A DNA stretch of 64,000 nt. It comes from a virus (Duplodnaviria > Caudoviricetes). The notes under the pieces are model-generated. The model had not been told where the DNA came from and did not search any database. It saw only the letters and a list, made by a program, of their open reading frames with translations. Shown in pieces: positions 1,201 through 58,409 of this stretch (the first letter of the stretch is position 1; each line of letters starts with the position of its first letter). The DNA lies in IMG/VR virus record IMGVR_UViG_3300028591_000094, positions 32,001 to 96,000 of that record; one strand, written 5' to 3'. Both the position numbers and the translations under genes were made by a program.

Positions 1201-2186
1201 TATCGCAACTGCTTGAAATACTGAATTGTTCTGTTGATTCCGTCAGCAAACGAAACCTTAGGTTCCCAACCGAGAACTTTTTTTGCCTTTGAGATGTCTG
1301 GCTTTCTGACAAGCGGGTCATCCGATGGCAACTCCTTAAAAACTATTTTGGATTTATCATCCTCGCCATTCACAACTTTGTTGATATGTTTGGCTATATC
1401 CAGTATTGTCATTTCGTTGGGGTTTCCGAGATTGACGGGACCGATTTCATCCGAATCCATCATCAATAACAGTCCTTCAACCAAGTCGTCCACATAACAC
1501 AGACTCCTGGTTTGTGACCCGTCGCCATAGACGGTGATGTCCTTCCCGTCTAACGCCTGGTTGATAAAATTGGAAACACAACGCCCGTCGTCTGGTCGCA
1601 TATAAGGACCGTAGGTGTTGAATATTCTTACAACACGCACATCAACGCCTTGTTTTCTATGGTAATCGAAACACAGCGACTCACCACATCTCTTCCCCTC
1701 ATCATAACACGACCTGATACCACTACAATTCACATTTCCCCTGTAGCTTTCTTTCTGCGGATGTTCCAACGGGTCACCGTAGACTTCGCTCGTTGATGTG
1801 TACAGGTACCTGCAGCCGTACTCCCTTGCGATTTCCAGCAGATTTATACTTCCGTCGACACAAGTCCTGGTTGTATGTATCGGGTCGGCTTGGTAGAACG
1901 GAGGCGACGCTGGGCATGCCAGGTTCCAAATTCGGCACTCATTGCCTTTCACATAAGGCATGATGTTACGTTCCATTATCGCGTTCAATATCGGCTTGTC
2001 AACAATGTCACAAACCCATGCAACAACCATCGGATTATCCAGTGATTGAATGTTTTCAACCACTCCGCTCGATAGGTTGTCTAATATGAATATGAAGTTA
2101 TTATCATCCTTCAACAAACGTTTGACCAGGTTCATACCGATGAACCCAGCCCCACCTGCAATGATATGGTATTTGATTTCATCCAT
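1197..2186 (-). CDS. UDP-glucuronic acid decarboxylase / NAD-dependent epimerase-dehydratase (extended SDR)
   Basis: GGAGFIG, LACPASP, STSEVYGDP, YDEGKR, RIFNTYGP, GDGSQTRS motifs. Confidence 0.93.
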   Translation of the reverse strand: MDEIKYHIIAGGAGFIGMNLVKRLLKDDNNFIFILDNLSSGVVENIQSLDNPMVVAWVCDIVDKPILNAIMERNIMPYVKGNECRIWNLACPASPPFYQADPIHTTRTCVDGSINLLEIAREYGCRYLYTSTSEVYGDPLEHPQKESYRGNVNCSGIRSCYDEGKRCGESLCFDYHRKQGVDVRVVRIFNTYGPYMRPDDGRCVSNFINQALDGKDITVYGDGSQTRSLCYVDDLVEGLLLMMDSDEIGPVNLGNPNEMTILDIAKHINKVVNGEDDKSKIVFKELPSDDPLVRKPDISKAKKVLGWEPKVSFADGINRTIQYFKQLRY

Positions 2187-3007
2187 TATTCTTGAGTTGT
2201 TTCCTCTTTATGTTCTTCAATGTACCACTCGTCGAGTTTTTTCTCAGTCTGGCGCCACTCGGTGTCGTTGAAATAGTGTCCAGCGTTACGCTTTGCGTCC
2301 AGACAGTGTTTGCATAAATCAAACTTGGCTGTGTACATGAACTCAACAACATCCGTCTTGAACGGCTTGGCTGTAAGGTCTATGTATTCGTCACCCTCCA
2401 CTTTCAACTTATGCTGCCCCTTGAAATACTCGTCAAAATACTTGAATTGGGCGGCATACTGGCAGGGATACAGCTTTCCGTCGACCAACTGACAACAAGC
2501 ACCCCTCGATGCACATGTATAAATTTCCTCATCATCAGTGCATTCGTTTCCCGAGAAAAACACCTTATGGAAGTGTTCGGCGTTCAAACGGTAGTTCAAA
2601 GTGCCGTCAATTTTGGACGGGATATCCCAAAACTTGTCACCCACAAGCGGATAATACGTTCCCAGTACGTTGATATTGTTCTCATGTATCACAGCCTTGT
2701 ATTTGTCCATTGAGTCCGCCCTGGTTCCGTTGGTGTACATTGTTATCTCGTTGTATGGAAAGTATTGTCGGGCAATTTGCATGATTTCATCTAGCTGAGG
2801 ATGAAGCGTACACTCGCCGCCTGTTAGTGTCAGTCCCACGAAACAGTCAGCATAACAGCTCAGAATCTCCAAGTCCTTTTTTATTGTGTCAATCGTCTTG
2901 TGTCCCACCGTCGGCGGTACGAGACACGAAAAGTGACCGCAGCTCACGCAGTTGAGGTTACAGCGGTCGGTTACATGGTAGTCTATGTTATCTATTTTCC
3001 TAGGCAT
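2186..3007 (-). CDS. Radical SAM protein
   Basis: CNLNCVSC (CxxxCxxC), TGGE, TNG and C-terminal Cys cluster. Confidence 0.88.
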   Translation of the reverse strand: MPRKIDNIDYHVTDRCNLNCVSCGHFSCLVPPTVGHKTIDTIKKDLEILSCYADCFVGLTLTGGECTLHPQLDEIMQIARQYFPYNEITMYTNGTRADSMDKYKAVIHENNINVLGTYYPLVGDKFWDIPSKIDGTLNYRLNAEHFHKVFFSGNECTDDEEIYTCASRGACCQLVDGKLYPCQYAAQFKYFDEYFKGQHKLKVEGDEYIDLTAKPFKTDVVEFMYTAKFDLCKHCLDAKRNAGHYFNDTEWRQTEKKLDEWYIEEHKEETTQE

Positions 3008-3779
3008 CGTATCTGCAAATAAACACATCTTCCTCGCTGGGCAAAATCGACGTGTAGCCCAGTTTGGTTATAAATCCGAATAAATCGTATCTCATTTTTT
3101 TCTTGGCTTCGGACAGTTCTGGGGAATCTGTTTTCTCAACATTCCACGACTCTACAACCAACGTTGGATATTTCGATTCCTTTATCGTCTCGACGGCGCC
3201 CTTCAGTACGTTCAGCTCAAAACCCTCCACGTCGATTTTCATCAATCCGACATTCTTTATACCGAAGGAATCCAAAGTCTTGACTGGCAGTTCCGTACTA
3301 TGCACATAGTCGTTTTTGTACCAGTCGTACATATGCTCGATAGCATGTGAGGTTGGGTCGTCCGTCGCCTTGGTGAACTTGTTTCCGCCGCCCAATTCAT
3401 CTAAAAAGGTGTATTTCAACGTTTCGTCTTTATCTGACAGCCCCATGTTCACTAGTGTGGTTTTTTCGGACAGATTATATAGAGCAATATTACCACACAG
3501 GATATTATATACATGTCTGTTCGGTTCAAAGGCATATGAATGTTTGAAAATTGGCGCCAGCACCATGGTGTAGGTTCCAACATTAGCCCCGACATCGATG
3601 AACACCTTGTCGCCCATTTTACCCTGCAGTTCGTTAAGCAGGGTGTTTATAGTGTTTACCTCGGTTGAATACATCCCACTCAACAGAAGGTTGGTGGCAA
3701 ACCCCATGTCGTCGGGCATGAAGTAGGCTCCAGATGGGTCTAGATGCTCAACCCGTTCCTGATACTTGTAATAAATCAT
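3000..3779 (-). CDS. FkbM-family methyltransferase
   Basis: FIDVGANVG, AFEP, KIDVEGFE motifs. Confidence 0.9.
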   Translation of the reverse strand: MIYYKYQERVEHLDPSGAYFMPDDMGFATNLLLSGMYSTEVNTINTLLNELQGKMGDKVFIDVGANVGTYTMVLAPIFKHSYAFEPNRHVYNILCGNIALYNLSEKTTLVNMGLSDKDETLKYTFLDELGGGNKFTKATDDPTSHAIEHMYDWYKNDYVHSTELPVKTLDSFGIKNVGLMKIDVEGFELNVLKGAVETIKESKYPTLVVESWNVEKTDSPELSEAKKKMRYDLFGFITKLGYTSILPSEEDVFICRYDA

Positions 3780-6825: not shown

Positions 6826-7175
6826 AAAGAAAACCCAGCGCGGACGCTGGGGCGGCGCGATTTAGTTCGCGCCAGACTCGCTTTGGGTGCCCATACTAGG
6901 CAGCCATTGCATAAGAAGTTTTGTTGCCATTTAAACAACATCAGCGACCGTCTCCTTCCCTTGTACTTCTCCGCTGTCAAAACCTGTCACCCCCAAAATT
7001 ATCCTTATCTTACAAAGTATTGTCTTCCAACACGAGCCTTTTTCGATTGCGCTTCAGGATTAGCATCATTACCTGCAATGCTTTCGTGCCCTGGACACTT
7101 TGTAATTTTGTGGAGGTGGAGCGAATCGAACGCTCGTCCAAACGGTCTTTCCTCGGATTATCATCAACCGTCACT
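6826..7175 (-). ncRNA. ssrA: Circularly permuted (two-piece) tmRNA; tag (A)GNKTSYAMAA at 6896..6928
   Basis: Acceptor piece ...GAGCGTTCGATTCGCTCCACCTCCA (ends 7111) precedes coding piece GGGGGTGACAGGTTTTGAC (starts 6994); G3:U70; hairpin plus U-tract after the tag. Confidence 0.88.
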
Positions 7176-14539: not shown

Positions 14540-14595
14540 GCCTAATAATGTTTTGTTTAATGTTAATTTATAATAAATATCTAACATCCGAAGAA

Positions 14596-16242
14596 TTAAA
14601 CATAATCAAAAGTGTTCATTACACCTTTATTACATTCACCACTTGCTTTCTTCTGCAAGTCTCTTCGGAACGATAGCAATACCTCTTTTACTTTCTCACG
14701 CTTGATACGCTTCGGTTCAAAAGATTTGTTATCACGTTGTTTTAAGAGTTTCTGCTGCAACACGGTTACAGCCACTCTGTTCCTTATATTAATCGCCGCA
14801 TTAACGTCGGCGTTGTCTTCATGCCCACATTCGATACATTCAAACGTTTCCTGATTCGGTCTATTCTCATCTTCTATACACCCACACACGGGGCACATCT
14901 TCGACGTATAACTCGCTTGGACTGTGGATACGGCGATATTGTACTTCCTCGCAATGTGTTCCACTTCATCTTTCAATGAACTGATGCTCAAGGCTCGGAC
15001 AATGCGATTGTAGTTAAGGTCATCGTTTACCTTGTCCTTGATGTACGAGCGACCGAACTGACCGTTTAGGTCTTCCATCACTATATGGTTCACTCCCTGT
15101 TCGGACAACTCCTTGCACATCGTCGCAATGGTTTGTTTCTCAATCTCGAGTATCTTGTGTGATATGATGTCTATCTTCTTCTGTCTACGTTTCGACGGCT
15201 TCCAATCACGACCGTATTGTTTCTTCAAAGTGTCCATACACTTGGATACCTCTGCATAAGCCTTGAGCAAGTCGCGGTCGTAATCATATGTGAGAGCACT
15301 AGAGAGCGTGAACATGTTGTGCTTGACATTCACATCGATACCCACGATATTGCTACCTGCCTCAGGAATGTATCTGTCCTGTTTCTTCGTGAGGATTACG
15401 ACCACCTGTTTCTTCCTCTCGTTGAATACTACGGTATATTCATAATCAGGATTCGATTTCTCATAGTCATGGATGCTTCCGTGATAGTCCTTGTTGAACT
15501 TGACTGGTATGTCAAAGGATTTTCTGCCGAGGCTGCTCAACGATACGAATGCGTTGATTACAGACCCGAAACGAGAGTTATAATCTATTATCAGTTTCTT
15601 ACGACTCCTGCCACGGAATGTGAGGGACTTGAATTCAATCGGATGTTCGGTGTACTTTTTGTAGGTGCGTTCCCTCCTTGACAGTGCAAGCGAATAAAGT
15701 CTATCGAATCCGAACTTCTCTATCTCACCGAGGATTGTCTTGTAGAACATCTGTTTCTTCTTGTCCGCCTTCGGCATTTGTTCGTTGATGTAGTCAATGA
15801 TTCCTTCATTACCGTATCTCGCGAGATATGAAAGTGTGATTGTGAGCGATGAGGACGTTTTGGTGTTTCTCACCTTCTTGAAGTCGCCTTTCTTATTCTT
15901 TTTGGTGTCGCGTTTGTACAGTTCACAACAGACGTAGTGGATGTTTTCGAATGTCAGTTTATGTTTAACGTTCTCGAATTTATTTTGGTAGGTGACGATA
16001 ACATCTTCGTAACACTGTTTGTCGAATGACGACGGCAGTTCTGAATATTTAGCCCGCATTTCCTTGAGGAAATCGAAGGTTGAAACGTCGAGGTAGTCAA
16101 ACAAGTGCTCACAGACGAATTGGGATATAACGTTCTTGTGTTCGCGGATTTTGACAGCAATATCAAGCAGTTCACCGTACTTCTGTGCAGTGAGGTTGTT
16201 CGAGACGAACCTTTTGCTGTATATGCTGTCGTGCTTAATCAT
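14596..16242 (-). CDS. tnpB: Large (548 aa) TnpB/Cas12f-like RNA-guided nuclease
   Basis: RuvC GIDVN, MEDLN, NADVNAAINI; zinc finger CPVCG/CIECG. Confidence 0.85.
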   Translation of the reverse strand: MIKHDSIYSKRFVSNNLTAQKYGELLDIAVKIREHKNVISQFVCEHLFDYLDVSTFDFLKEMRAKYSELPSSFDKQCYEDVIVTYQNKFENVKHKLTFENIHYVCCELYKRDTKKNKKGDFKKVRNTKTSSSLTITLSYLARYGNEGIIDYINEQMPKADKKKQMFYKTILGEIEKFGFDRLYSLALSRRERTYKKYTEHPIEFKSLTFRGRSRKKLIIDYNSRFGSVINAFVSLSSLGRKSFDIPVKFNKDYHGSIHDYEKSNPDYEYTVVFNERKKQVVVILTKKQDRYIPEAGSNIVGIDVNVKHNMFTLSSALTYDYDRDLLKAYAEVSKCMDTLKKQYGRDWKPSKRRQKKIDIISHKILEIEKQTIATMCKELSEQGVNHIVMEDLNGQFGRSYIKDKVNDDLNYNRIVRALSISSLKDEVEHIARKYNIAVSTVQASYTSKMCPVCGCIEDENRPNQETFECIECGHEDNADVNAAINIRNRVAVTVLQQKLLKQRDNKSFEPKRIKREKVKEVLLSFRRDLQKKASGECNKGVMNTFDYV

Positions 16243-16357
16243 TCGATAAAAAAAAGAGGTTTGATTCGGAGTTGCAAAATGTGGAAGCTGGCAACAGGGA
16301 ATTAACCTCAATATGTCTACTTTGATAGGCTTCCACCTCTATCATAATATAAATATC
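16243..16357 (-). promoter_or_regulatory. TATTTAT promoter plus kissing-loop leader RNA (copy 1)
   Basis: GTGGAAGC/GCTTCCAC loop-loop complementarity; homologous to 20443..20568. Confidence 0.7.
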
Positions 16358-16432
16358 ACGAAGTTTTGAAAATGTTTGTTTTTTATTGATTATTTTTGTT
16401 ATTTATTTTGTTTGCTGTTGTATATCCCGCTT

Positions 16433-17260
16433 TTACATTACAGGAATGATGTTGAGTGCATCGAATCTTGCCCTGCCGTCCTCGTTCGTCAGGCAAAACG
16501 CAGGATGTATAATCCAAGGATGGCGCATGTACTCCATGGTGCCGTTCTCGCAAGGGGAAGTCATCATAATGTCCTCTTTGTAGATGAACCTGCCGAACTT
16601 CAAACTGTCGTCGAAACTGTGCCAGTCAACCCCCTTCTCAGCTTTCAGTTTCTCAATCTGCTGGTCGGCGTTGAGCTTTTCCAACTGTTTGTGGGGAAGA
16701 TAAGCCTGGGCGGTCTGAGCCTTGGAGTTACGGATGCAGTCTATTTGTCTGTGCAGGAGCCATCCGAACACATCGTTATAGCATGGTACGTTCCAACATT
16801 TGCAGTCAAATTGGGCTAACTTAAGGCTGGATATAGCGTTTTTGCATACCCCAATGTTAACCGAATTGGGACTTTCGGCTATCGAGCCCAACAGACGAAG
16901 TGTCATCAACTGGTTGAACTTTCCCGTTGCTAAAGACGCTATGATTGAGAGCATCTTGGTAAGGCGGTACCCGAAGAACGACTCGGTTGAATCGTTGTCA
17001 AAGTCGGTCAACACCAGTGAAATCTCATCGGATTGGACATATGCGAACTTGCACCCCGAAACGTTTTCGCAAACATATCTGGCGGTCTCATTCATCATCT
17101 CGATAAAATCGCCGTCAAACGGTTTCCTGAACTTGTTTTTGATAAGGTGCGAAAACGAACGCCCGTCCAGCATCACCATCACATAAGACCTGGGCATCAA
17201 CTTATAGTCGGTGAGTCCGCGATAGTAGTTCATTCTGTCTTTCAAAGTTTCGAATCTCAT
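16433..17260 (-). CDS. tRNA-His guanylyltransferase Thg1-like protein
   Basis: LDGRSFS, KPFD, YVQSDEISL, FDCK, RQIDC..N motifs. Confidence 0.92.
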   Translation of the reverse strand: MRFETLKDRMNYYRGLTDYKLMPRSYVMVMLDGRSFSHLIKNKFRKPFDGDFIEMMNETARYVCENVSGCKFAYVQSDEISLVLTDFDNDSTESFFGYRLTKMLSIIASLATGKFNQLMTLRLLGSIAESPNSVNIGVCKNAISSLKLAQFDCKCWNVPCYNDVFGWLLHRQIDCIRNSKAQTAQAYLPHKQLEKLNADQQIEKLKAEKGVDWHSFDDSLKFGRFIYKEDIMMTSPCENGTMEYMRHPWIIHPAFCLTNEDGRARFDALNIIPVM

Positions 17261-17274
17261 ATTTCAATTAATAT

Positions 17275-18264
17275 TTAATTAATTTCCTTTATATAGAATT
17301 TGTCGTTGAATATGCAGTCGATATTCTCATACACGAAATGGTAATCCTTTTTCTTCGGTCTGATACCATGGTAGAGTTTGAAGATAATCGAATGGTATGG
17401 CATGGGCACGCACATCAGCTCGACACTCTTTGCATTCTTGAAACTGGCGTACCGACGCTCCTTTGCGTAAAACGTGCACCGTTTGTGGTTCTCCTTCTTT
17501 GAATAGAAGTCATATCCCCTCAGCGTGAACTCCTCGATATGGACGTTGGCACCAACTCTCAATGCAATGCCAACCTCATTGACGGGGAACTCTGTAGCCG
17601 CATCGGTTATCTCAAAAATCAGCTCGTCCGAATTCGCCACAACCAGCGTGCTGGGGTCGACACCACGCTCAATTATGTAATTATACACCTTGCCAATCAA
17701 ATGTTCCTCCACGGTGATATGGCGCTTGGGGTTCATCTTGCCGAAAATAACCTGACGGAAATATTTGGACTCCTTTATATAGTACAGGTCGGTGAACTTG
17801 GATATGAACTCCTCGTAGGTGCCGCTGTTCAACAGGATGTTTCGGTCGACATAGTTCAAAGCCTGGAAGTTACCCTTTGTCAAATCGATTGACACAAACT
17901 TTTTCCCGATATTCATCTCGTTATACAAACTCGAACACCTGGGTGCAAGTTTCACTTTCGGATACACACCCATGTCACAGTTGTTGAACGCAATGAACGG
18001 CTCGCTCGTGGAAACCGTCTGGATTACTTGCTCCCTAATTCGGTAGAACTCCTCCAGGAACTTCTCGGGATTGCCACCGAAGCGCTGGTCAATCAAGTCC
18101 CACAGTTGAAGCCATTTGGACTTGCACCCGAACTTGTTTTCATAAAGATTCAGGTGATACTTGAACATCCTCTCCCCCATTATGGGTATCGGGAGGCGGT
18201 AGTCGTTTACAAACCTCTGTGCAAGGTTCCAGTTGAATCTAAACTTTTTCTTCTTTTCAAACAT
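17275..18264 (-). CDS. Hypothetical protein
   Basis: 329 aa ORF behind a class II promoter. Confidence 0.7.
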   Translation of the reverse strand: MFEKKKKFRFNWNLAQRFVNDYRLPIPIMGERMFKYHLNLYENKFGCKSKWLQLWDLIDQRFGGNPEKFLEEFYRIREQVIQTVSTSEPFIAFNNCDMGVYPKVKLAPRCSSLYNEMNIGKKFVSIDLTKGNFQALNYVDRNILLNSGTYEEFISKFTDLYYIKESKYFRQVIFGKMNPKRHITVEEHLIGKVYNYIIERGVDPSTLVVANSDELIFEITDAATEFPVNEVGIALRVGANVHIEEFTLRGYDFYSKKENHKRCTFYAKERRYASFKNAKSVELMCVPMPYHSIIFKLYHGIRPKKKDYHFVYENIDCIFNDKFYIKEIN

Positions 18265-18293
18265 ATCTATTCAATATTTAATCTCCTTTGCTT

Positions 18294-18323
18294 ATATAAC
18301 GCAACGAAACCCCTTTTTTGTAC
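18294..18323 (-). promoter_or_regulatory. Class II promoter motif
   Basis: GTACAAAAA-N11-TGCGTTATAT. Confidence 0.8.
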
Positions 18324-18384
18324 GGACAACTGGAAAAAAATTCAAATAGGTGAAAACAAAAAAAGCCACATTCAACGATGTGGC

Positions 18385-18822
18385 TTATGCCGTTTTTTCT
18401 TTCAGTATCTGTGAAACAACCTTGCCGTTGACGGTGGGATACTGTTTGTGAACCTCGTCCATGATGAACTTCATGTCCTTCATCGACGGAGTGTGGTCGA
18501 GCTTTCCGATTGCACTTTCAACACAATCCCTTATCTCATCCTCAGACGCCTCCTTGGGTAAAAATCCTTTGACAACTTCCAAACCGAAACGCTCGTTGTC
18601 TGCAAGGTCTGAACGACCGCCAGCAACAAACTGCGCAATTGAATCCTCAATGGAACTCTTCATCTTGGTCAGCATCTTCAGCTCGGCATCCTCGGTGTAC
18701 TCGGCACCAGACTTCTCAAGCACCAGCATGTTGGACTTTACCATCCTCAGCACCGCCAGCGTCTGCCCGTCCTTCTCTTTCATGGCGCCCTCGATGAGAG
18801 CGTCGATTCTGTCTTTTAACAT
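18385..18822 (-). CDS. GatB/YqeY domain protein
   Basis: AMKEKD..L.VLRMVKS, SI.QF..GGR.DLA..E, MKDM, GK.VS. Confidence 0.9.
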   Translation of the reverse strand: MLKDRIDALIEGAMKEKDGQTLAVLRMVKSNMLVLEKSGAEYTEDAELKMLTKMKSSIEDSIAQFVAGGRSDLADNERFGLEVVKGFLPKEASEDEIRDCVESAIGKLDHTPSMKDMKFIMDEVHKQYPTVNGKVVSQILKEKTA

Positions 18823-18867
18823 GATAGTATTGTTTTTGATTGAAAATAATAATTGAATTCAGATTTG

Positions 18868-18939
18868 CAGAGGCGGCAAGACTTGAACTCACAACTTTAG
18901 TTTTGGAGACTAACATGTTACCAATTACACCACACCTCT
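18868..18939 (-). tRNA. tRNA-Trp(CCA)
   Basis: TTAGT-CTCCAAA-ACTAA. Confidence 0.92.
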
Positions 18940-19031
18940 ATATCCACCATTCATCATATTCGAACGGTGGCAATGTCACCTAAACTCTATTGTTTCACCT
19001 TTATGTCGGAAGCAAAGGGAGCCGACACGCG

Positions 19032-19120
19032 AGGAGAGAGCGGGACTCGAACCCGCGCCCCAGGTTACCCCGAAGAATTGATTAGCAATCAACCGCAGTA
19101 CCAACTATGCTTACCTCTCC
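19032..19120 (-). tRNA. tRNA-Ser(GCU)
   Basis: GTTGA-TTGCTAA-TCAAT, long variable arm. Confidence 0.9.
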
Positions 19121-19185
19121 GTAGCAAAAGACCTATAAGTTCTTGCCTATAAGACTTTCGATTTCTTGGTACCGTATAGAAAAAT

Positions 19186-20442
19186 CTAATAAAAACTGGA
19201 ATTATTAGTTTTTCCTTCTTGCTTCAACGAATCACTGCTTTTTAGGTTTGTTACCAAACGGTCATCCACAGTTGGGTTCTCCGCAAGCGTAAATTCGGTG
19301 TTACGGACACCTATTGTTCTTATTCCTTCATTCAAGATGTTGATTGCAGCATTCACATCCCTGTCGTGATGCTCGCCGCAAATCGGACAAACCCATTCAC
19401 GGTCGCTCAAAACCAAGTCCTTCTTGATGTAACCGCACTTGTGGCAGGTCTTGCTGCTCGGATAGAAACGGTCAACCAAGACAACCTTCTTGCCGTTTAG
19501 TTCCGCTTTGTCGGTCAGAACTTGTCTGAACCGATACAATCCGATTTCTTGTATCGCCTTTGAAAGTTTATGGTTCTTCAACATTCCTCTGACATTCAAA
19601 TCCTCCATACAAACCAAGTCGTAATCTTTAAGCAGGCAATTCACGACATAGTAGATGTATGCTTCCTTTTGGTTAGTCAATCGTTCAAACGCCTTCGCAA
19701 TTCTGACACGTTGTTTCTCTCGGTTGTGTGAACCTTTGACTTTCCTTGACAGTTGCTTCTGCAACCTCTTGACTTTTTGCTCTTGCTTTTTGAAGAAGTG
19801 CCTGTTATCAAAGACCTCACCGTCACTTGTAATCACAAAGTCCTTCACTCCGAGGTCTATACCAACGCATTGTTTAGTGTGTTTGAATTTGATAAGTTCA
19901 TCCTGCGGTATGTCAACAAGGATTGAAAGGAAGTAGTTGCCGCTCTTGGTTCTCGAAACGGTAGCACTCCTTATGCAATCTTTGTAGTCTTGAAGTCTCT
20001 CGTAATACAAGTCCGAACATCTAAACTTGATGTCCTTGAGGTCTTGAGTTAAAGTTATTTTTCTTTCATTGAATGTGTTGCGCTTTGAAATCGCTTCTGA
20101 CGGAAACAGTGCCGACTGCTTGTCCTTCTTTGACTTGAACTTCGGGAATCCGTTGTGCTGCTTGAAGAACTTTGAATAAGCGTCAAGCATTTGACGGATT
20201 GACTGTTTCATCACCTTTGTGTTCTGTTCTTGCAACCAAGCATAGTTCTCGTCTTTCAATAATGTTCCGTGAAACCACTTGGAAATGTCAGTTAGTTTAA
20301 GATTGGTCTTATCCTCGTCATAGGCATTGCGCTTGAATTCAAGGGTCTTGTTATACACAAAGCGGTAGCATCCAAGTACCTTGTCAAGTCTTGTCTGCTG
20401 TTCCTTGTTCGGATATAACCTTACCTTGATTCCTCGCAACAT
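19186..20442 (-). CDS. tnpB: TnpB RNA-guided endonuclease
   Basis: N-terminal HTH, GIDLG, MEDLN, PSSKTCHKCG, DRDVNAAINI. Confidence 0.95.
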   Translation of the reverse strand: MLRGIKVRLYPNKEQQTRLDKVLGCYRFVYNKTLEFKRNAYDEDKTNLKLTDISKWFHGTLLKDENYAWLQEQNTKVMKQSIRQMLDAYSKFFKQHNGFPKFKSKKDKQSALFPSEAISKRNTFNERKITLTQDLKDIKFRCSDLYYERLQDYKDCIRSATVSRTKSGNYFLSILVDIPQDELIKFKHTKQCVGIDLGVKDFVITSDGEVFDNRHFFKKQEQKVKRLQKQLSRKVKGSHNREKQRVRIAKAFERLTNQKEAYIYYVVNCLLKDYDLVCMEDLNVRGMLKNHKLSKAIQEIGLYRFRQVLTDKAELNGKKVVLVDRFYPSSKTCHKCGYIKKDLVLSDREWVCPICGEHHDRDVNAAINILNEGIRTIGVRNTEFTLAENPTVDDRLVTNLKSSDSLKQEGKTNNSSFY

Positions 20443-20568
20443 ATCAATAAAAAAGAGGCATTAAACTTGCGGTTAAAAATGTGGACAGAACCGACAAGGA
20501 TAAAACCTCTATATATCTTATGTTATTTAGAAACGACTGTCCACTTTCGTTTCTTTATTTATAAATAG
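20443..20568 (-). promoter_or_regulatory. TATTTAT promoter plus kissing-loop leader RNA (copy 2)
   Basis: GTGGACAG/CTGTCCAC loop-loop complementarity. Confidence 0.7.
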
Positions 20569-20649
20569 TCTGAAACTACAATATATTTATACGAGTTAGT
20601 TTTTATCAGTTTTTCATAGATTTTATTAGATTTTCAAGGAACTGTTATG

Positions 20650-20720
20650 TACCCCCATAGGGACTCGAACCCCAATTCTGGGTTTAGAAGACCCATGTCC
20701 TTCCGTTGAACGATAGGGGC
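20650..20720 (-). tRNA. tRNA-Arg(UCU)
   Basis: TGGGT-CTTCTAA-ACCCA. Confidence 0.92.
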
Positions 20721-21483: not shown

Positions 21484-21835
21484 GTACACAGAAACTTATG
21501 AAAACTTGTGATTTTCATCAGTTTCCGCTTCCTGCTTCGACGAGCCGCCGCTTCTTAGGCACGTCTCCGTGCGTTCGTCCACGGTTGGGTTCTCCACAGG
21601 CGTGAATTCGGGTCTACGGAACCCTATTATTCTTTCACCTTCCATAAGGATATTAATCGCAGCATTCAAATCCCTATCGTGATGTTCACCACACACGGGG
21701 CAAGTCCACTCACGTTCGCCAAGGGTCAATCCCTTGTAGACATAGCCGCACTTATGGCAGGTCTTGGAACTGGCGTACCACCTGTCCACCTCCACGATTT
21801 CCTTTCCATTCAGGGAAGCCTTGTCCATGAGCACG
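21484..21835 (-). pseudogene. tnpB: tnpB 3' remnant with element right end
   Basis: SSKTCHKCG..CPVCG..DRDLNAAINI..EFTPVENPTVD, similar to 19186..20442. Confidence 0.88.
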
Positions 21836-21903
21836 GACTTGAACCTGCACGCCTTTCGGCACTTGCTCCTAAGGCAAGCGTGTCTGCATTCCACCACAAG
21901 GGC
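21835..21903 (-). pseudogene. Truncated duplicate tRNA-Leu(UAG) fused to the tnpB remnant
   Basis: Near-identical to 21147..21226 up to GGTTCAAGTCC, then tnpB sequence. Confidence 0.85.
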
Positions 21904-23366: not shown

Positions 23367-23972
23367 TTAGTAATATTTTTTTCTGCCCCTACGACCTGAT
23401 TTGTTATGAGATTTATAATTATCTGTAAGTGAATGGCAGTTAGGGCACAGTACTTGAAGGTTATCTAAATTATTATTTGTATAATTACCATCAATATGAT
23501 GTATTTCAAGCGGAATTGTTTGTGTATATTCGTTCCGTTCACCCCATCCACATTTTTCACATTTATAATGGCTTTTTTTCAACAGATATTTTCTAATAAA
23601 ATGTGACAAATTATATTCGCCACTTAAACCGTTGCATTCTCCATTCAGCCACAGTTCCACGTGTTTTTGCTGTCTATACTCACCAGAACATTTCGTTGAA
23701 CAAAATTTATTGGTTGAACTATAGGAATGTTCAAATTCACACCCACAATTCAAGCAAACATGTTTCACCTTTTCTTTTATCGTTTTACCTTTATTAAAAT
23801 GTTCGTTGGGATTTATTTGGCGTTTATTTTTTAACTCAATACCCAACTTTTTACATGCTTTTTTTATTGTGTTAGAGCTTACACCATAATTGCGCCCGAT
23901 TTCACAATATGATACGTTTTCTTGAATCATCTTTTCAAGATTTTCCTTTTCGTTAGACCAATTAATCTTCAT
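23367..23972 (-). CDS. HNH homing endonuclease (free-standing) with N-terminal HTH
   Basis: CEKCG, LEIHHIDGN..NN..NLQVLCPNCH. Confidence 0.92.
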   Translation of the reverse strand: MKINWSNEKENLEKMIQENVSYCEIGRNYGVSSNTIKKACKKLGIELKNKRQINPNEHFNKGKTIKEKVKHVCLNCGCEFEHSYSSTNKFCSTKCSGEYRQQKHVELWLNGECNGLSGEYNLSHFIRKYLLKKSHYKCEKCGWGERNEYTQTIPLEIHHIDGNYTNNNLDNLQVLCPNCHSLTDNYKSHNKSGRRGRKKYY

Positions 23973-24029
23973 TTGAATTATAGTTTTATTATAAATATTT
24001 AATAAAACAATAATTCGTTTTTTTTTTCG

Positions 24030-27112: not shown

Positions 27113-27930
27113 TAGCGGGAGAGGGACTCGAACCCCCGACCTCAAGGTTATAACATTAATACTCCATTATCATATTCCCAATGGTGGTTAGGGCACAATC
27201 CTATGAGATTGCTAATAGAGTTTATCACGCTTACTGGTGTACAATCATCAAATTCAGAAACTGCTTTTATGTGAGCAACCTCAACATGATTTTTGTAACC
27301 GCAAATATGACAACTTGGATTTTCTGTGTTTTCAAAAAATACTTTTCTAGCATCTTTCTGTATTGCAGAACGAGCGGATTGCCAATTTTTCCTATTTTTG
27401 AACAACTCACCCTTCGTTTTGTTGTGAACATCATCAGTAACTGTAAGTTGTAGTTCCATACCTAACTTCGAACATCTTTCAGTTATTGCTTTTTTGGTGT
27501 TACTTGCAAGACATTTACACTTGTAACCAAGTTTTTTACCAATTTCTACCCAAGTTTTCGATGATTTTATAATATCAATGAACTCTTCATCACTTGGTGC
27601 GTTAACGAATGAAAACGTCTCAGTTTTCTTGTGTGAAAAATTTTCAATTTCGTTAATTTTTCTTCTTTGCGGTAACTTGATACCTAGTCGTTTTGCTCTT
27701 TTTTTTACAGCATTACCACTAATACCAAGTATTTTACCAATAGCGGAATAACTTTCATTCTGCTCTAAAATCATCTTTTTCAAAAATTCTTCTTCATTCA
27801 TAACAACTCTTTATTATAAATAGTTGTTACTTTTAAAAACGAACCTTCTTATTAAGAATAATCTTAGTTCGAATGGGTTTCGGCTTTTAAACCGTAAGAG
27901 CCTTGCGAGCTACCACTGCTCCATCCCGCA
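27113..27930 (-). tRNA. tRNA-fMet(CAU) split in the anticodon by a 746-nt HNH insertion (halves 27898..27930 and 27113..27151)
   Basis: CAAGGCTC joined to ATAACCTTG restores an initiator-type tRNA with a 1:72 mismatch. Confidence 0.85.
27148..27801 (-). CDS. HNH endonuclease inside tRNA-fMet
   Basis: CHICG, VEVAHIK, N..NLIGLCPNHHWEYD; N-terminal HTH. Confidence 0.92.
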   Translation of the reverse strand: MNEEEFLKKMILEQNESYSAIGKILGISGNAVKKRAKRLGIKLPQRRKINEIENFSHKKTETFSFVNAPSDEEFIDIIKSSKTWVEIGKKLGYKCKCLASNTKKAITERCSKLGMELQLTVTDDVHNKTKGELFKNRKNWQSARSAIQKDARKVFFENTENPSCHICGYKNHVEVAHIKAVSEFDDCTPVSVINSISNLIGLCPNHHWEYDNGVLML

Positions 27931-28998: not shown

Positions 28999-29018
28999 AA
29001 TAGCGGTACTTTTTTTAG

Positions 29019-29090
29019 AACTACGGACGGGACTCGAACCCGCATCTGCCCCCCGATAAGGGGGCCGTCCTACCATTAAACGACCGTACT
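29019..29090 (-). ncRNA. tRNA-like RNA with an 8-nt anticodon loop (CTTATCGG)
   Basis: Cloverleaf with GCCCC/GGGGC stem and a G2:G71 mismatch. Confidence 0.65.
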
Positions 29091-34822: not shown

Positions 34823-34923
34823 TTTACTAATTCTAATTGTAGTTTATATTATATAAATATAATTAAAAAAGAAAAGCAACCGTTGGTTGGTCGCTTTTCT
34901 TGTATTCAGCAGGAGGGATGGCG

Positions 34924-57221: not shown

Positions 57222-58409
57222 CTAAAGATTTCGGTGCTTCTGACTTCCTTGACAGTTGCGTTCCGAAGAATGTCTTACACCGTCTCCATCAGTGTAATCG
57301 ACCGTCCCAGCCGATATATTTCTTAATCCTTCTTTAAGAATGTTTTTTGCGGCATTGATGTCTCTGTTATGTATTGTTCCGCATTGAGGGCATATCCATT
57401 CCCTAACCGACAAATCTTTCACTTTGCCGTTAACATAACCGCATTCATTACAAGTCTGACTTGAAGGATAGAACCTATCTATCTTCACTATCTGTTTATT
57501 GTTCAAGTCAGCCTTGTATTGAAGATATGTTACAAAAGTACCCCAACTTGCGTCTTGAATATGCTTAGCCAACTTATGATTCTTAACCATACCCTTAATG
57601 TTTAGGTCTTCAAGACAAATTATGTCATATTTCCTAATCAAATCGGTTGATACTTTATGTAGATTATCATTACGGGAATTAGCAATCATTTCTTGAAGCT
57701 TGGCAACCTTGAGTCTTTGTTTTTCGTACTCATTACTACCATATTGCTTTCTTGAAAGGTGTTTTTGAGCAATTGCTAACTTTCGTTGATATTTCTTTGT
57801 ATATCTATTATTTTTATATGTTTTTCCATCAGATGTTATTACGAAATCCTTTAAACCAAGGTCAATACCAACTTGTTTGTTTGATTTTGGTAAAGGCTCA
57901 TACATTTGTTCAGTCAACAAACTGACATAATACTTACCAGTAGTTGTAAGTGATATTGTTGCTGAGTTAATCTTACCTTCAACTTGGCGATGCTGTCTGA
58001 CCTTGATACCTTCCTTGAATTTCGGAAAGTACACCTTGCCGTCTTTCAATTCAACAAACTGAGGAACTGAAAAACTGTTTCTGCTCTTTTTGCTTTTGAA
58101 ATTAGGGAATTTGGCATTGCCTCTGAAAAAATTAACATAAGCTGTTTCAAGATGCCTTAATGTATGTTGAAGTGTCTGACTGTTGATTTCTTTCAACCAA
58201 AGATGCTCACCATCTTTTTTCAGTTCAGTTAATTTCTTTGCTTGTTCATAATAATTATCTGATTTATACGTTTCATCATACTGACGTTTCCGTTCAGATA
58301 AGAAATAGTTGTATACAAACCTAACAGACCCAAAATGTTTTGCCAACAAAACTTTTTGTTCCGCATTTGGCTCAAGTCTGAATTTATATGTTTTATACAC
58401 AACCTTCAT
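57222..58409 (-). CDS. tnpB: TnpB RNA-guided endonuclease
   Basis: GIDLG, LEDLN, PSSQTC, NRDINAA. Confidence 0.95.

Follow-up and report, generated by a model that had tools for sequence, protein, structure and literature searches.

A covarying kissing-loop RNA leader precedes two divergent tnpB genes of Lak-like Prevotella megaphages

Cas12 descends from TnpB, itself a compact genome-editing nuclease, and to our knowledge almost nothing is known about the natural control of TnpB expression. Here we describe a structured leader found directly upstream of two highly divergent tnpB genes, tnpB-A and tnpB-B, in a 64-kb stretch of viral DNA (hereinafter referred to as the window; G000:C1:32001-96000), which is part of a 168-kb viral record (IMGVR_UViG_3300028591_000094, hereinafter G000). 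The only named phages with DNA similarity to the window were the Prevotella Lak megaphages, and by this similarity its source is a Lak-like Prevotella megaphage, a giant phage of the rumen and gut. A total of 22 distinct versions of the leader were collected from related phage contigs. Judged by the compensatory base changes among them, the leader is a real and previously undescribed structured RNA family, whose pairing pattern exceeds chance. It is a clearly defined, strongly covarying module that replaces the transposase gene in two unrelated megaphage TnpB elements, and it offers a testable case of a selfish RNA-guided nuclease that may have been tamed or timed inside a virus.

A reading made from the sequence alone (the sequence-only reading) had proposed a shared layout of two hairpins with mutually complementary loops ahead of both genes. 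This layout was present at both places, on the minus strand (Table 1). In each copy an A-rich spacer separates hairpin 1 from hairpin 2, and the loop of hairpin 1 has its exact complement in that of hairpin 2 (GTGGAAGC/GCTTCCAC in copy A; GTGGACAG/CTGTCCAC in copy B). The inner stem of hairpin 2 covaries between the copies, GTTGC/GCAAC in A being replaced by CGGTT/AACCG in B, and both hairpins were recovered by single-sequence folding. The distance from TCCAC to the start codon, which had been given as equal, was 39 nt in both copies (16281 to 16242 in A and 20481 to 20442 in B).

Homologous leaders were gathered by protein-guided searches of viral contigs and by scanning viral and metagenome contigs for a specific DNA pattern; an initial pattern scan, in viral contigs, had yielded nothing but an unrelated, common coding sequence. 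A covariance model (R1) was built, the 22 leaders were aligned (alignment A3), and base pairs were counted with the pseudoknot written in. Hairpin 1 of copy A is misaligned in A3, and its geometry by eye is the same as in the other versions. The loop-loop helix was the best supported helix of the fold, with double changes at 6 of its 8 pairs and 99.4% of the cells paired, and sliding the kissing partner by 1-3 columns reduced the pairing to 40-53%. For the hairpin 1 stem, 5 of 7 pairs covary, and RNAalifold independently predicted both hairpins from the alignment. The covariation of the whole structure was reached by none of 500 shuffles. Compensatory changes included G-U intermediates, and the 22 leaders carried 11 different loop 8-mers. 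Between two of the versions (L079 and L101), the sole difference in 118 nt was one compensated kissing pair, in which U-A was changed to C-G. The predicted energy of the loop duplex was about -12 to -15.5 kcal/mol in those leaders where loop extraction worked; set against the predicted energies of hairpin 1 (-3 to -8 kcal/mol) and hairpin 2 (-14 to -20 kcal/mol), this makes the kiss a major part of the fold.

Sequence conservation was distributed unevenly along the leader. Hairpin 1, the spacer and the apex of hairpin 2 were freely variable (pi 0.23-0.39), with pairing kept. In hairpin 2, the lower two thirds, including a U/A internal loop, were nearly invariant (pi 0-0.1), and the two A residues opening loop 1, the TATTTAT box upstream of hairpin 1 and the U tract behind hairpin 2 were also nearly or completely fixed. 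All 22 versions, the divergent copy A, L082 and L084 among them, had a GAGG/CCTC base followed by 5-8 U residues, and this GC-based stem with an immediate U tract near the ATG was the sole feature besides the pairing itself that all of them kept. The U tract is followed by the ATG after 6-9 nt, or after 24 nt in two copies. Linker lengths were likewise fixed. In loop 1 the kissing strand is flanked by 2 and 0 nt, and in loop 2 its partner strand is flanked by 1-2 nt (5') and 4-7 nt (3'). Such spacing fits with the two hairpins and the kissing helix being stacked coaxially into one rod. The only leader with a kissing mismatch (GTGGAAAG vs CTCTCCAC) was that of L131 (13037-13158), whose tnpB runs off the contig; this copy may lie between two compensating changes, or it may be decaying.

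All 22 leaders precede a tnpB gene of the A type or the B type, at 6-24 nt after the U tract. The downstream gene was an A-type tnpB in 17 cases (about 546 aa, starting MVIDSKYTK...) and a B-type tnpB in the other 5 (418-433 aa, starting MLRGIKVRLYPNKEQQ...). A search with the covariance model in ten phage records (~2.0 Mb) returned 14 confident copies, all of which stood before A- or B-type tnpB with no orphan among them; one further, weak R1 match in these records (E = 0.5) was coding sequence. The specific pattern had no occurrence in 185,579 species genomes of bacteria and archaea, and in IMG/VR and the metagenomes it was found in Lak-like contigs only. Going by these searches, the leader is specific to tnpB copies resident in Lak-like phages. 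A literature search found no description of the leader, and no paper that connects TnpB with leaders of Lak phages or megaphages or with kissing loops.

The proposal that one modular element is common to two divergent TnpB lineages was also borne out. TnpB-A and TnpB-B share 27% identity, confined to 198 residues spanning the RuvC and zinc-finger motifs, in agreement with the low similarity outside these motifs that had been described for the 548-aa and 418-aa proteins. Leaders were nearly identical in the A-type locus L079 and the B-type locus L087, although the proteins encoded behind them are likewise 27% identical and barely alignable, which indicates that the cassette moved between the lineages. 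On this distribution, promoter plus leader is a modular cassette of megaphage TnpB elements that lack tnpA. Two relatives without the leader were also observed. At L078 (2988-4629), an A-type tnpB (61% identity) has kept its right end and lost its left end together with the leader, so that it abuts the preceding open reading frame (ORF). At 21496-21897 (-) of the window, a 133-aa C-terminal fragment of a B-type tnpB with a homologous right end (GTGTACGGC) is fused upstream to an apparent degenerate copy of tRNA-Leu(TAG).

Table 1. Coordinates of the two leader copies, their tnpB genes and the enclosing mobile units in the window
Feature	Position	Strand	Description
Copy A TATTTAT promoter-like box	16349..16355	(-)	invariant across 22 leaders
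Copy A hairpin 1	16323..16344	(-)	6-bp stem TGATAG/CTATCA, 10-nt loop
Copy A kissing 5' strand GTGGAAGC	16329-16336	(-)	last 8 nt of hairpin 1 loop
Copy A hairpin 2	16256..16309	(-)	long three-segment stem; GAGGTT/AACCTC closing, inner stem GTTGC/GCAAC
Copy A kissing 3' strand GCTTCCAC	16281-16288	(-)	in hairpin 2 loop, followed by ATTTT
Copy A U tract and spacer	16243..16255	(-)	U8 (16255-16248) abutting hairpin 2, then 5 nt; tnpB-A ATG at 16242
tnpB-A	14596..16242	(-)	548 aa; large IS607-lineage TnpB; RuvC D/E/D residues and zinc finger present
Whole A-type unit	~14587..16428	(-)	left GGGATA... (16428), right ...TTCTTCGGA (14587)
Copy B TATTTAT promoter-like box	20561..20567	(-)	inverted TATAAATA box 14 nt upstream
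Copy B hairpin 1	20530..20553	(-)	7-bp stem GAAACGA/TCGTTTC
Copy B kissing 5' strand GTGGACAG	20537-20544	(-)	last 8 nt of hairpin 1 loop (10-nt loop)
Copy B hairpin 2	20454..20510	(-)	AGAGGT/GCCTCT closing, inner stem CGGTT/AACCG; lower two thirds almost invariant in the family
Copy B kissing 3' strand CTGTCCAC	20481-20488	(-)	in hairpin 2 loop
Copy B U tract and 6-nt spacer	20443..20453	(-)	U6 = 20454-20449; tnpB-B ATG at 20442
tnpB-B	19186..20442	(-)	418 aa; domains HTH_OrfB_IS605, OrfB_IS605, TNB
Whole B-type unit	~19171..20654	(-)	left GGGTACATAACAG, right ...CTATACGGT

To define the mobile units, ends were placed where alignments of copies at different genomic sites stop matching. In A-type elements the shared sequence begins at GGGATAACAACAG..., roughly 225 nt ahead of the ATG, and stops at ...TTCTTCGGA, 12 nt beyond the stop codon; in B-type elements it spans GGGTACATAACAG... 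to ...CTATACGGT. Left ends start with GGG, right ends stop at CGG(A/T), and the left flanks end in G runs. Since copies at different sites share sequence throughout the interval bounded by GGG and CGG, the leader is part of the mobile unit and falls within its left end. Ends of the IS607 family have a GG core, a G-rich flank and the transposon-adjacent motif AGGAG/GAGGG (PMC11061315). Subterminal repeats phased at 10 bp were present in both types and were type-specific; in the B-type unit, phased AAAAWCTAAT repeats occur at the left end and recur in inverted orientation at the right. No empty site turned up from which the exact element junction could be fixed. The left end of the B-type unit (GGGTACATAACAG, 20641-20654) overlaps the 3' end of a tRNA-Arg(TCT) gene at 20649-20660, from which it follows that the element sits there and provides a portion of the acceptor strand. 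A G run also precedes each of the four other B-type copies.

The leader had been said to sit where tnpA would be expected, and comparison with relatives of the two elements agrees with this. In the distantly related A-type locus L085, whose TnpB shares 36% identity with TnpB-A, a 190-aa serine recombinase (Resolvase domain) is encoded before tnpB, and one related phage (G001) harbored a full IS607 tnpA-tnpB pair with tnpA directly behind a TATTTAT box. These relatives link tnpB to a serine-recombinase tnpA, as expected of IS607-family elements. From this arrangement, the leader occupies the tnpA slot of IS607-type elements that have no tnpA of their own. The complete IS607 element of G001 is a possible source of transposase in trans. 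In that element (L146; G001:C1:223000-227500), a 202-aa serine recombinase overlaps a 405-aa TnpB of a third lineage (1868-3677, minus strand), and the TATTTAT box is found 8 nt ahead of the start codon of tnpA, without a structured leader. The closest bacterial relatives of TnpB-B (72% identity) have kept the right end and are without the leader. The window contains one more tnpB (57222-58409; 40% identity to B), which is part of an intact IS605 element with a Y1 transposase and is also without the leader.

The leader begins at a promoter-like TATTTAT box, which recurs upstream of other genes of the phage. In the 168-kb record, TATTTAT was found within 120 nt upstream of ORFs 28 times in the sense and 11 times in the antisense orientation, and 25 of the 28 sense boxes were 20-50 nt from the ATG; the suggestion that the leader starts at a phage-type promoter motif is thus supported. 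Genes behind a TATTTAT(A) box included the tail sheath gene (G000 163104-167204) and three HNH endonuclease genes (window 23370-23972, window 27151-27801 and G000 158599-159522), all with short leaders. From its position and from this gene content, we infer that the box behaves as the phage's own promoter motif, plausibly of a late type. Ordinary boxed genes had leaders of 15-45 nt, and the two tnpB genes were outliers at 106-118 nt. A tie of TnpB to late expression, as proposed in the sequence-only reading, is hinted at only by the occurrence of the box before the tail sheath gene. Because the box and a short leader alone would give late timing, the structured leader must add something else. 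A further tnpB-like ORF beyond the window (G000:C1:167746-168082), cut by the contig end, follows TATTTATA with a plain 25-nt leader; this shows that a phage-resident tnpB can use the promoter motif without the kissing fold. Examples of the box in the window were located at 14573-14579, 23991-23997, 27816-27822 and 34853-34859. In addition, an inverted TATAAATA box (CGTATAAATATAT; window 20574-20592, minus strand) was observed about 14 nt upstream of the TATTTATA box of copy B. On the other strand this is a second promoter-like box, facing outward through the left end of the element. It was present in most homologous leaders and missing in copy A and in L084/L102.

Both TnpB lineages also carry guide-RNA features at their 3' ends, and the leader was compared with these and with known RNA classes. 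In A-type elements, the last ~110 nt of the ORF and the right end carry a covarying guide-RNA scaffold hairpin, together with a closing pairing of TCCGAAGA with TCTTCGGA. The 3' end of the B-type element gave a weak RAGATH-18-like match at 19216-19287 (24.6 bits, cut-off 44.9), RAGATH-18 being the guide RNA of IS607 TnpBs (PMC11061315). Flanks past the right end differed in every copy, as expected of guides. The leader is thus distinct from the 3' omega RNA, as had been proposed: the scaffolds lie at the right ends (TTCTTCGGA in A, CTATACGGT in B), and the leader lies 5' of the ATG. Duplex energies between the leader and the guide-RNA region were not better than those of shuffled sequences. 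Comparison with Rfam gave no match on either leader, whether by gathering score or at E <= 10, so that no existing family of known function accounts for it.

Several specific identities were considered and rejected. An omega RNA or right-end RNA (reRNA; RAGATH-18, RF03064) was ruled out by the 5' position and by the lack of any Rfam score at E <= 10. The 5' position would suit an omega RNA of the IscB/IsrB type (HEARO), but the proteins are TnpB and no HEARO match was obtained. A kissing-hairpin riboswitch such as guanidine-II is not compatible with the variation of the loop letters (11 8-mers) and with the absence of any conserved unpaired position in divergent members; nor did copy A, L082 and L084 share a conserved unpaired core, which argues against a riboswitch or ribozyme. 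For a bridge-RNA or guide-target function, a third copy of the loop 8-mer would be expected at or next to the element ends, and it was found in 0 of 11 loci tested. Extra copies were distant only, about 200 nt upstream of the hairpin 1 loop in L083 and at several places elsewhere in the window. A leader peptide was dismissed by eye: an ATG precedes hairpin 1 in some copies, and the frames differ, stop early or are absent. A U-A-U triple helix like that of the expression and nuclear retention element, formed by the A-rich spacer and the U-rich internal loop, was rejected since the A tract is not conserved (L080, L083). Codons ~42-46 of tnpB-B (GACGAGGATAAGACC, 20305-20319) can pair at 15 of 15 positions (13 Watson-Crick and 2 G-U) with the 5' arm of hairpin 2 (20493-20507); this complement is not conserved in four other B-type loci or in A-type loci and is probably due to chance.

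For the function of the leader we tentatively favor, at somewhat short of an even chance, a transcribed 5' leader of tnpB that acts in cis as an attenuator or brake in transposase-less IS607-type elements of Lak-like megaphages. Transcription would start a few bases past the TATTTAT(A) box, and the RNA would begin with hairpin 1. The purine-rich loop of hairpin 1 would form 8 bp with the loop of hairpin 2, giving a rod-like kissing complex along which the A-rich spacer would run back. The kissing helix would lock and stabilize hairpin 2, and the locked hairpin together with the U tract would constitute a putative intrinsic terminator or attenuator, or at least a barrier beside the start codon. 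Most transcripts from the strong phage promoter would end there, only the remainder would read through, placing tnpB and the 3' guide RNA on the same transcript, and the potentially harmful TnpB nuclease would presumably be kept at a low level. Such a brake would explain why a structured insert is found solely before these nuclease genes, and also why the cassette has traveled. The hallmark of a terminator, a GC-containing stem directly before a U tract, was found in 22 of 22 versions.

Several observations weigh against this attenuator. Hairpin 2 is ~55 nt long and has internal loops, which is unusual for an efficient terminator, and it was skipped by a simple terminator scan; as that scan accepts loops of 3-8 nt only, its silence says little. 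No mutually exclusive antiterminator fold was seen on inspection of A3, which would make the leader a fixed brake rather than a switch. The near-invariance of lower hairpin 2 suggests a sequence-specific factor, which a plain terminator does not need. Other tnpB genes of the same phage do without the leader. Finally, covariation cannot separate intramolecular from intermolecular pairing.

A 5' stabilizer, a processing site or a translational operator in place of a terminator is possible but unlikely. As a stabilizer, a 5' hairpin within a stacked rod of ~35-40 bp would shield the tnpB-guide transcript from decay that depends on the 5' end; as a processing site, the folded leader would be cleaved by a double-strand-specific (RNase III-type) enzyme; as an operator, the pseudoknot would be bound first by a protein whose coverage would then extend across the U-rich tract as far as the start codon, in the way that gp32 of phage T4 nucleates on the pseudoknot of its own mRNA and spreads toward the start codon. 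Hairpin 1 starts ~5-6 nt past the box, at the expected start of the transcript, the conserved linker lengths fit coaxial stacking, and every copy has an unstructured U/A tract that separates the fold from the ATG. The invariant lower hairpin 2 with its U/A internal loop looks like the site of a protein or an RNase, and in both TnpB lineages the transcript has to be intact as far as the 3' guide. However, the U run at the foot of a GC stem in every version is a termination signature that stabilization would not require, other genes of the phage use short A-rich leaders, and no RNase or binding protein could be named. A responsive switch, either a riboswitch-like sensor or a cis-acting antitermination RNA like put of phage HK022, is quite improbable. 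With a put-like RNA, a modified RNA polymerase would read through the hairpins of the guide region and out of the right end; the leader is indeed a promoter-proximal two-hairpin RNA with a conserved lower hairpin 2 sequence, and both lineages need transcription through a structured 3' scaffold into the flank. Yet the divergent members (copy A, L082, L084) have no conserved unpaired nucleotides for a ligand pocket, no mutually exclusive alternative fold was found in the leader, and the put RNAs of HK022 are not known to have a U tract at the foot of the second hairpin, a feature that the leader does have.

The stretch from the promoter to the U tract could also be a separate gene of ~105 nt for a small RNA (sRNA) acting in trans, like the copy-control RNAs of plasmids; we consider this distinctly unlikely. 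Leaders of the same element would then kiss between molecules, and the terminated sRNA would sense or repress its own nascent leader. A box, a structured body and a terminator-like end do make up a small transcription unit that is complete, covariation is equally consistent with pairing in trans, and with 11 loop 8-mers in the 22 leaders, co-resident copies often differ (GTGGAAGC vs GTGGACAG in the window, and three in G005). On the other hand, co-resident loops can be identical (L084 and L102 in G007) or one base apart (L077 and L080 in G001), and the loops were not more variable than the hairpin 1 stem or the inner stem of hairpin 2, which gives no sign of special diversifying selection. Intramolecular pairing is kinetically favored, and the length of the spacer permits it; moreover, no third site complementary to either loop was found near the elements, and the leader showed no special complementarity to the guide-RNA region. 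An improbable extension of the idea is self-addressed control, in which abundant terminated leader would kiss nascent leaders of the same element by a private 8-nt code and so set termination or translation by the element's copy number in the replicating phage pool. It is analogous to antisense copy control of plasmids, which use a countertranscript; if true, it would be a sense-sense copy control without a countertranscript that is portable between unrelated RNA-guided nucleases. A DNA-level signal (a transposase site, cruciform or operator) or mere chance similarity is scarcely credible. The leader does sit within the left end of a mobile element, and the lower arms of hairpin 2 form a conserved imperfect inverted repeat. 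Against a DNA signal stand the G-U intermediates among the compensatory changes and a loop-loop helix that would be meaningless in duplex DNA; relatives use serine recombinases, which act on double-stranded DNA, and transposase sites are more plausibly placed in the type-specific phased subterminal repeats further upstream. Chance is excluded by the 22 variants and the outcome of the 500 shuffles.

By analogy, the leader may work most like a combination of the left-end hairpins of IS200 and the kissing-loop attenuators of plasmid rep genes. In IS200, which belongs to the same IS200/IS605/IS607 superfamily, hairpins of the left end also lie between the promoter and the first gene, in the 5' untranslated region of tnpA, and lower protein expression, one acting as a terminator and one blocking translation initiation. 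The leader differs in having no sequence or structural homology to them and in having a loop-loop helix, which is not known in IS200, and the gene that would be controlled here is tnpB instead of tnpA; its promoter is of a phage type, and hosts of the Prevotella group make little use of Shine-Dalgarno pairing. In rep attenuation of plasmids such as pT181, pIP501 and pAMbeta1, loop-loop kissing is coupled to a terminator just before the start codon, and the loop letters vary among related elements with pairing kept. There, the partner loop is on a countertranscript, whereas a single sense RNA carries both loops of the phage leader, into which no antisense promoter was seen to point. Other likenesses are more partial. 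TnpB guide RNA is a structured, pseudoknot-containing RNA of the same element and protein family, but it is formed at the 3' end and followed by the guide, whereas the leader is 5' and common to two TnpB lineages with different 3' scaffolds. In the phage mRNA of T4 gene 32, the operator likewise has a 5' pseudoknot, with an unstructured A/U-rich tract between it and the start codon, but that pseudoknot is of the small H type and is bound by the product of the gene itself, unlike the 110-nt kissing complex with a terminator-like end described here. The bridge RNA, or seekRNA, of IS110 is likewise encoded in a 5' non-coding end upstream of the enzyme gene and has variable loops on a conserved scaffold; its loops pair with target and donor DNA, whereas those of the leader pair with each other, and the enzyme is a different one. 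For Rfam, the leader is a new RNA family with an unusually clean 8-bp kissing helix, and because the loop code can be changed freely, it is possibly a portable and tunable expression part.

As for the remainder of the window, nearly all genes, including the two leader-bearing tnpB genes, are on the minus strand. TnpB-A and TnpB-B both matched the Cas12f1-like TNB domain, and look-ups of the exact proteins gave matches only in DNA metagenome contigs. About 30 tRNA genes were encoded in the window, together with a permuted transfer-messenger RNA gene at 6896-7172 (Rfam RF04321, 63.8 bits). A tRNA-like gene, to which ARAGORN gave no anticodon assignment, was located at 29018-29090.

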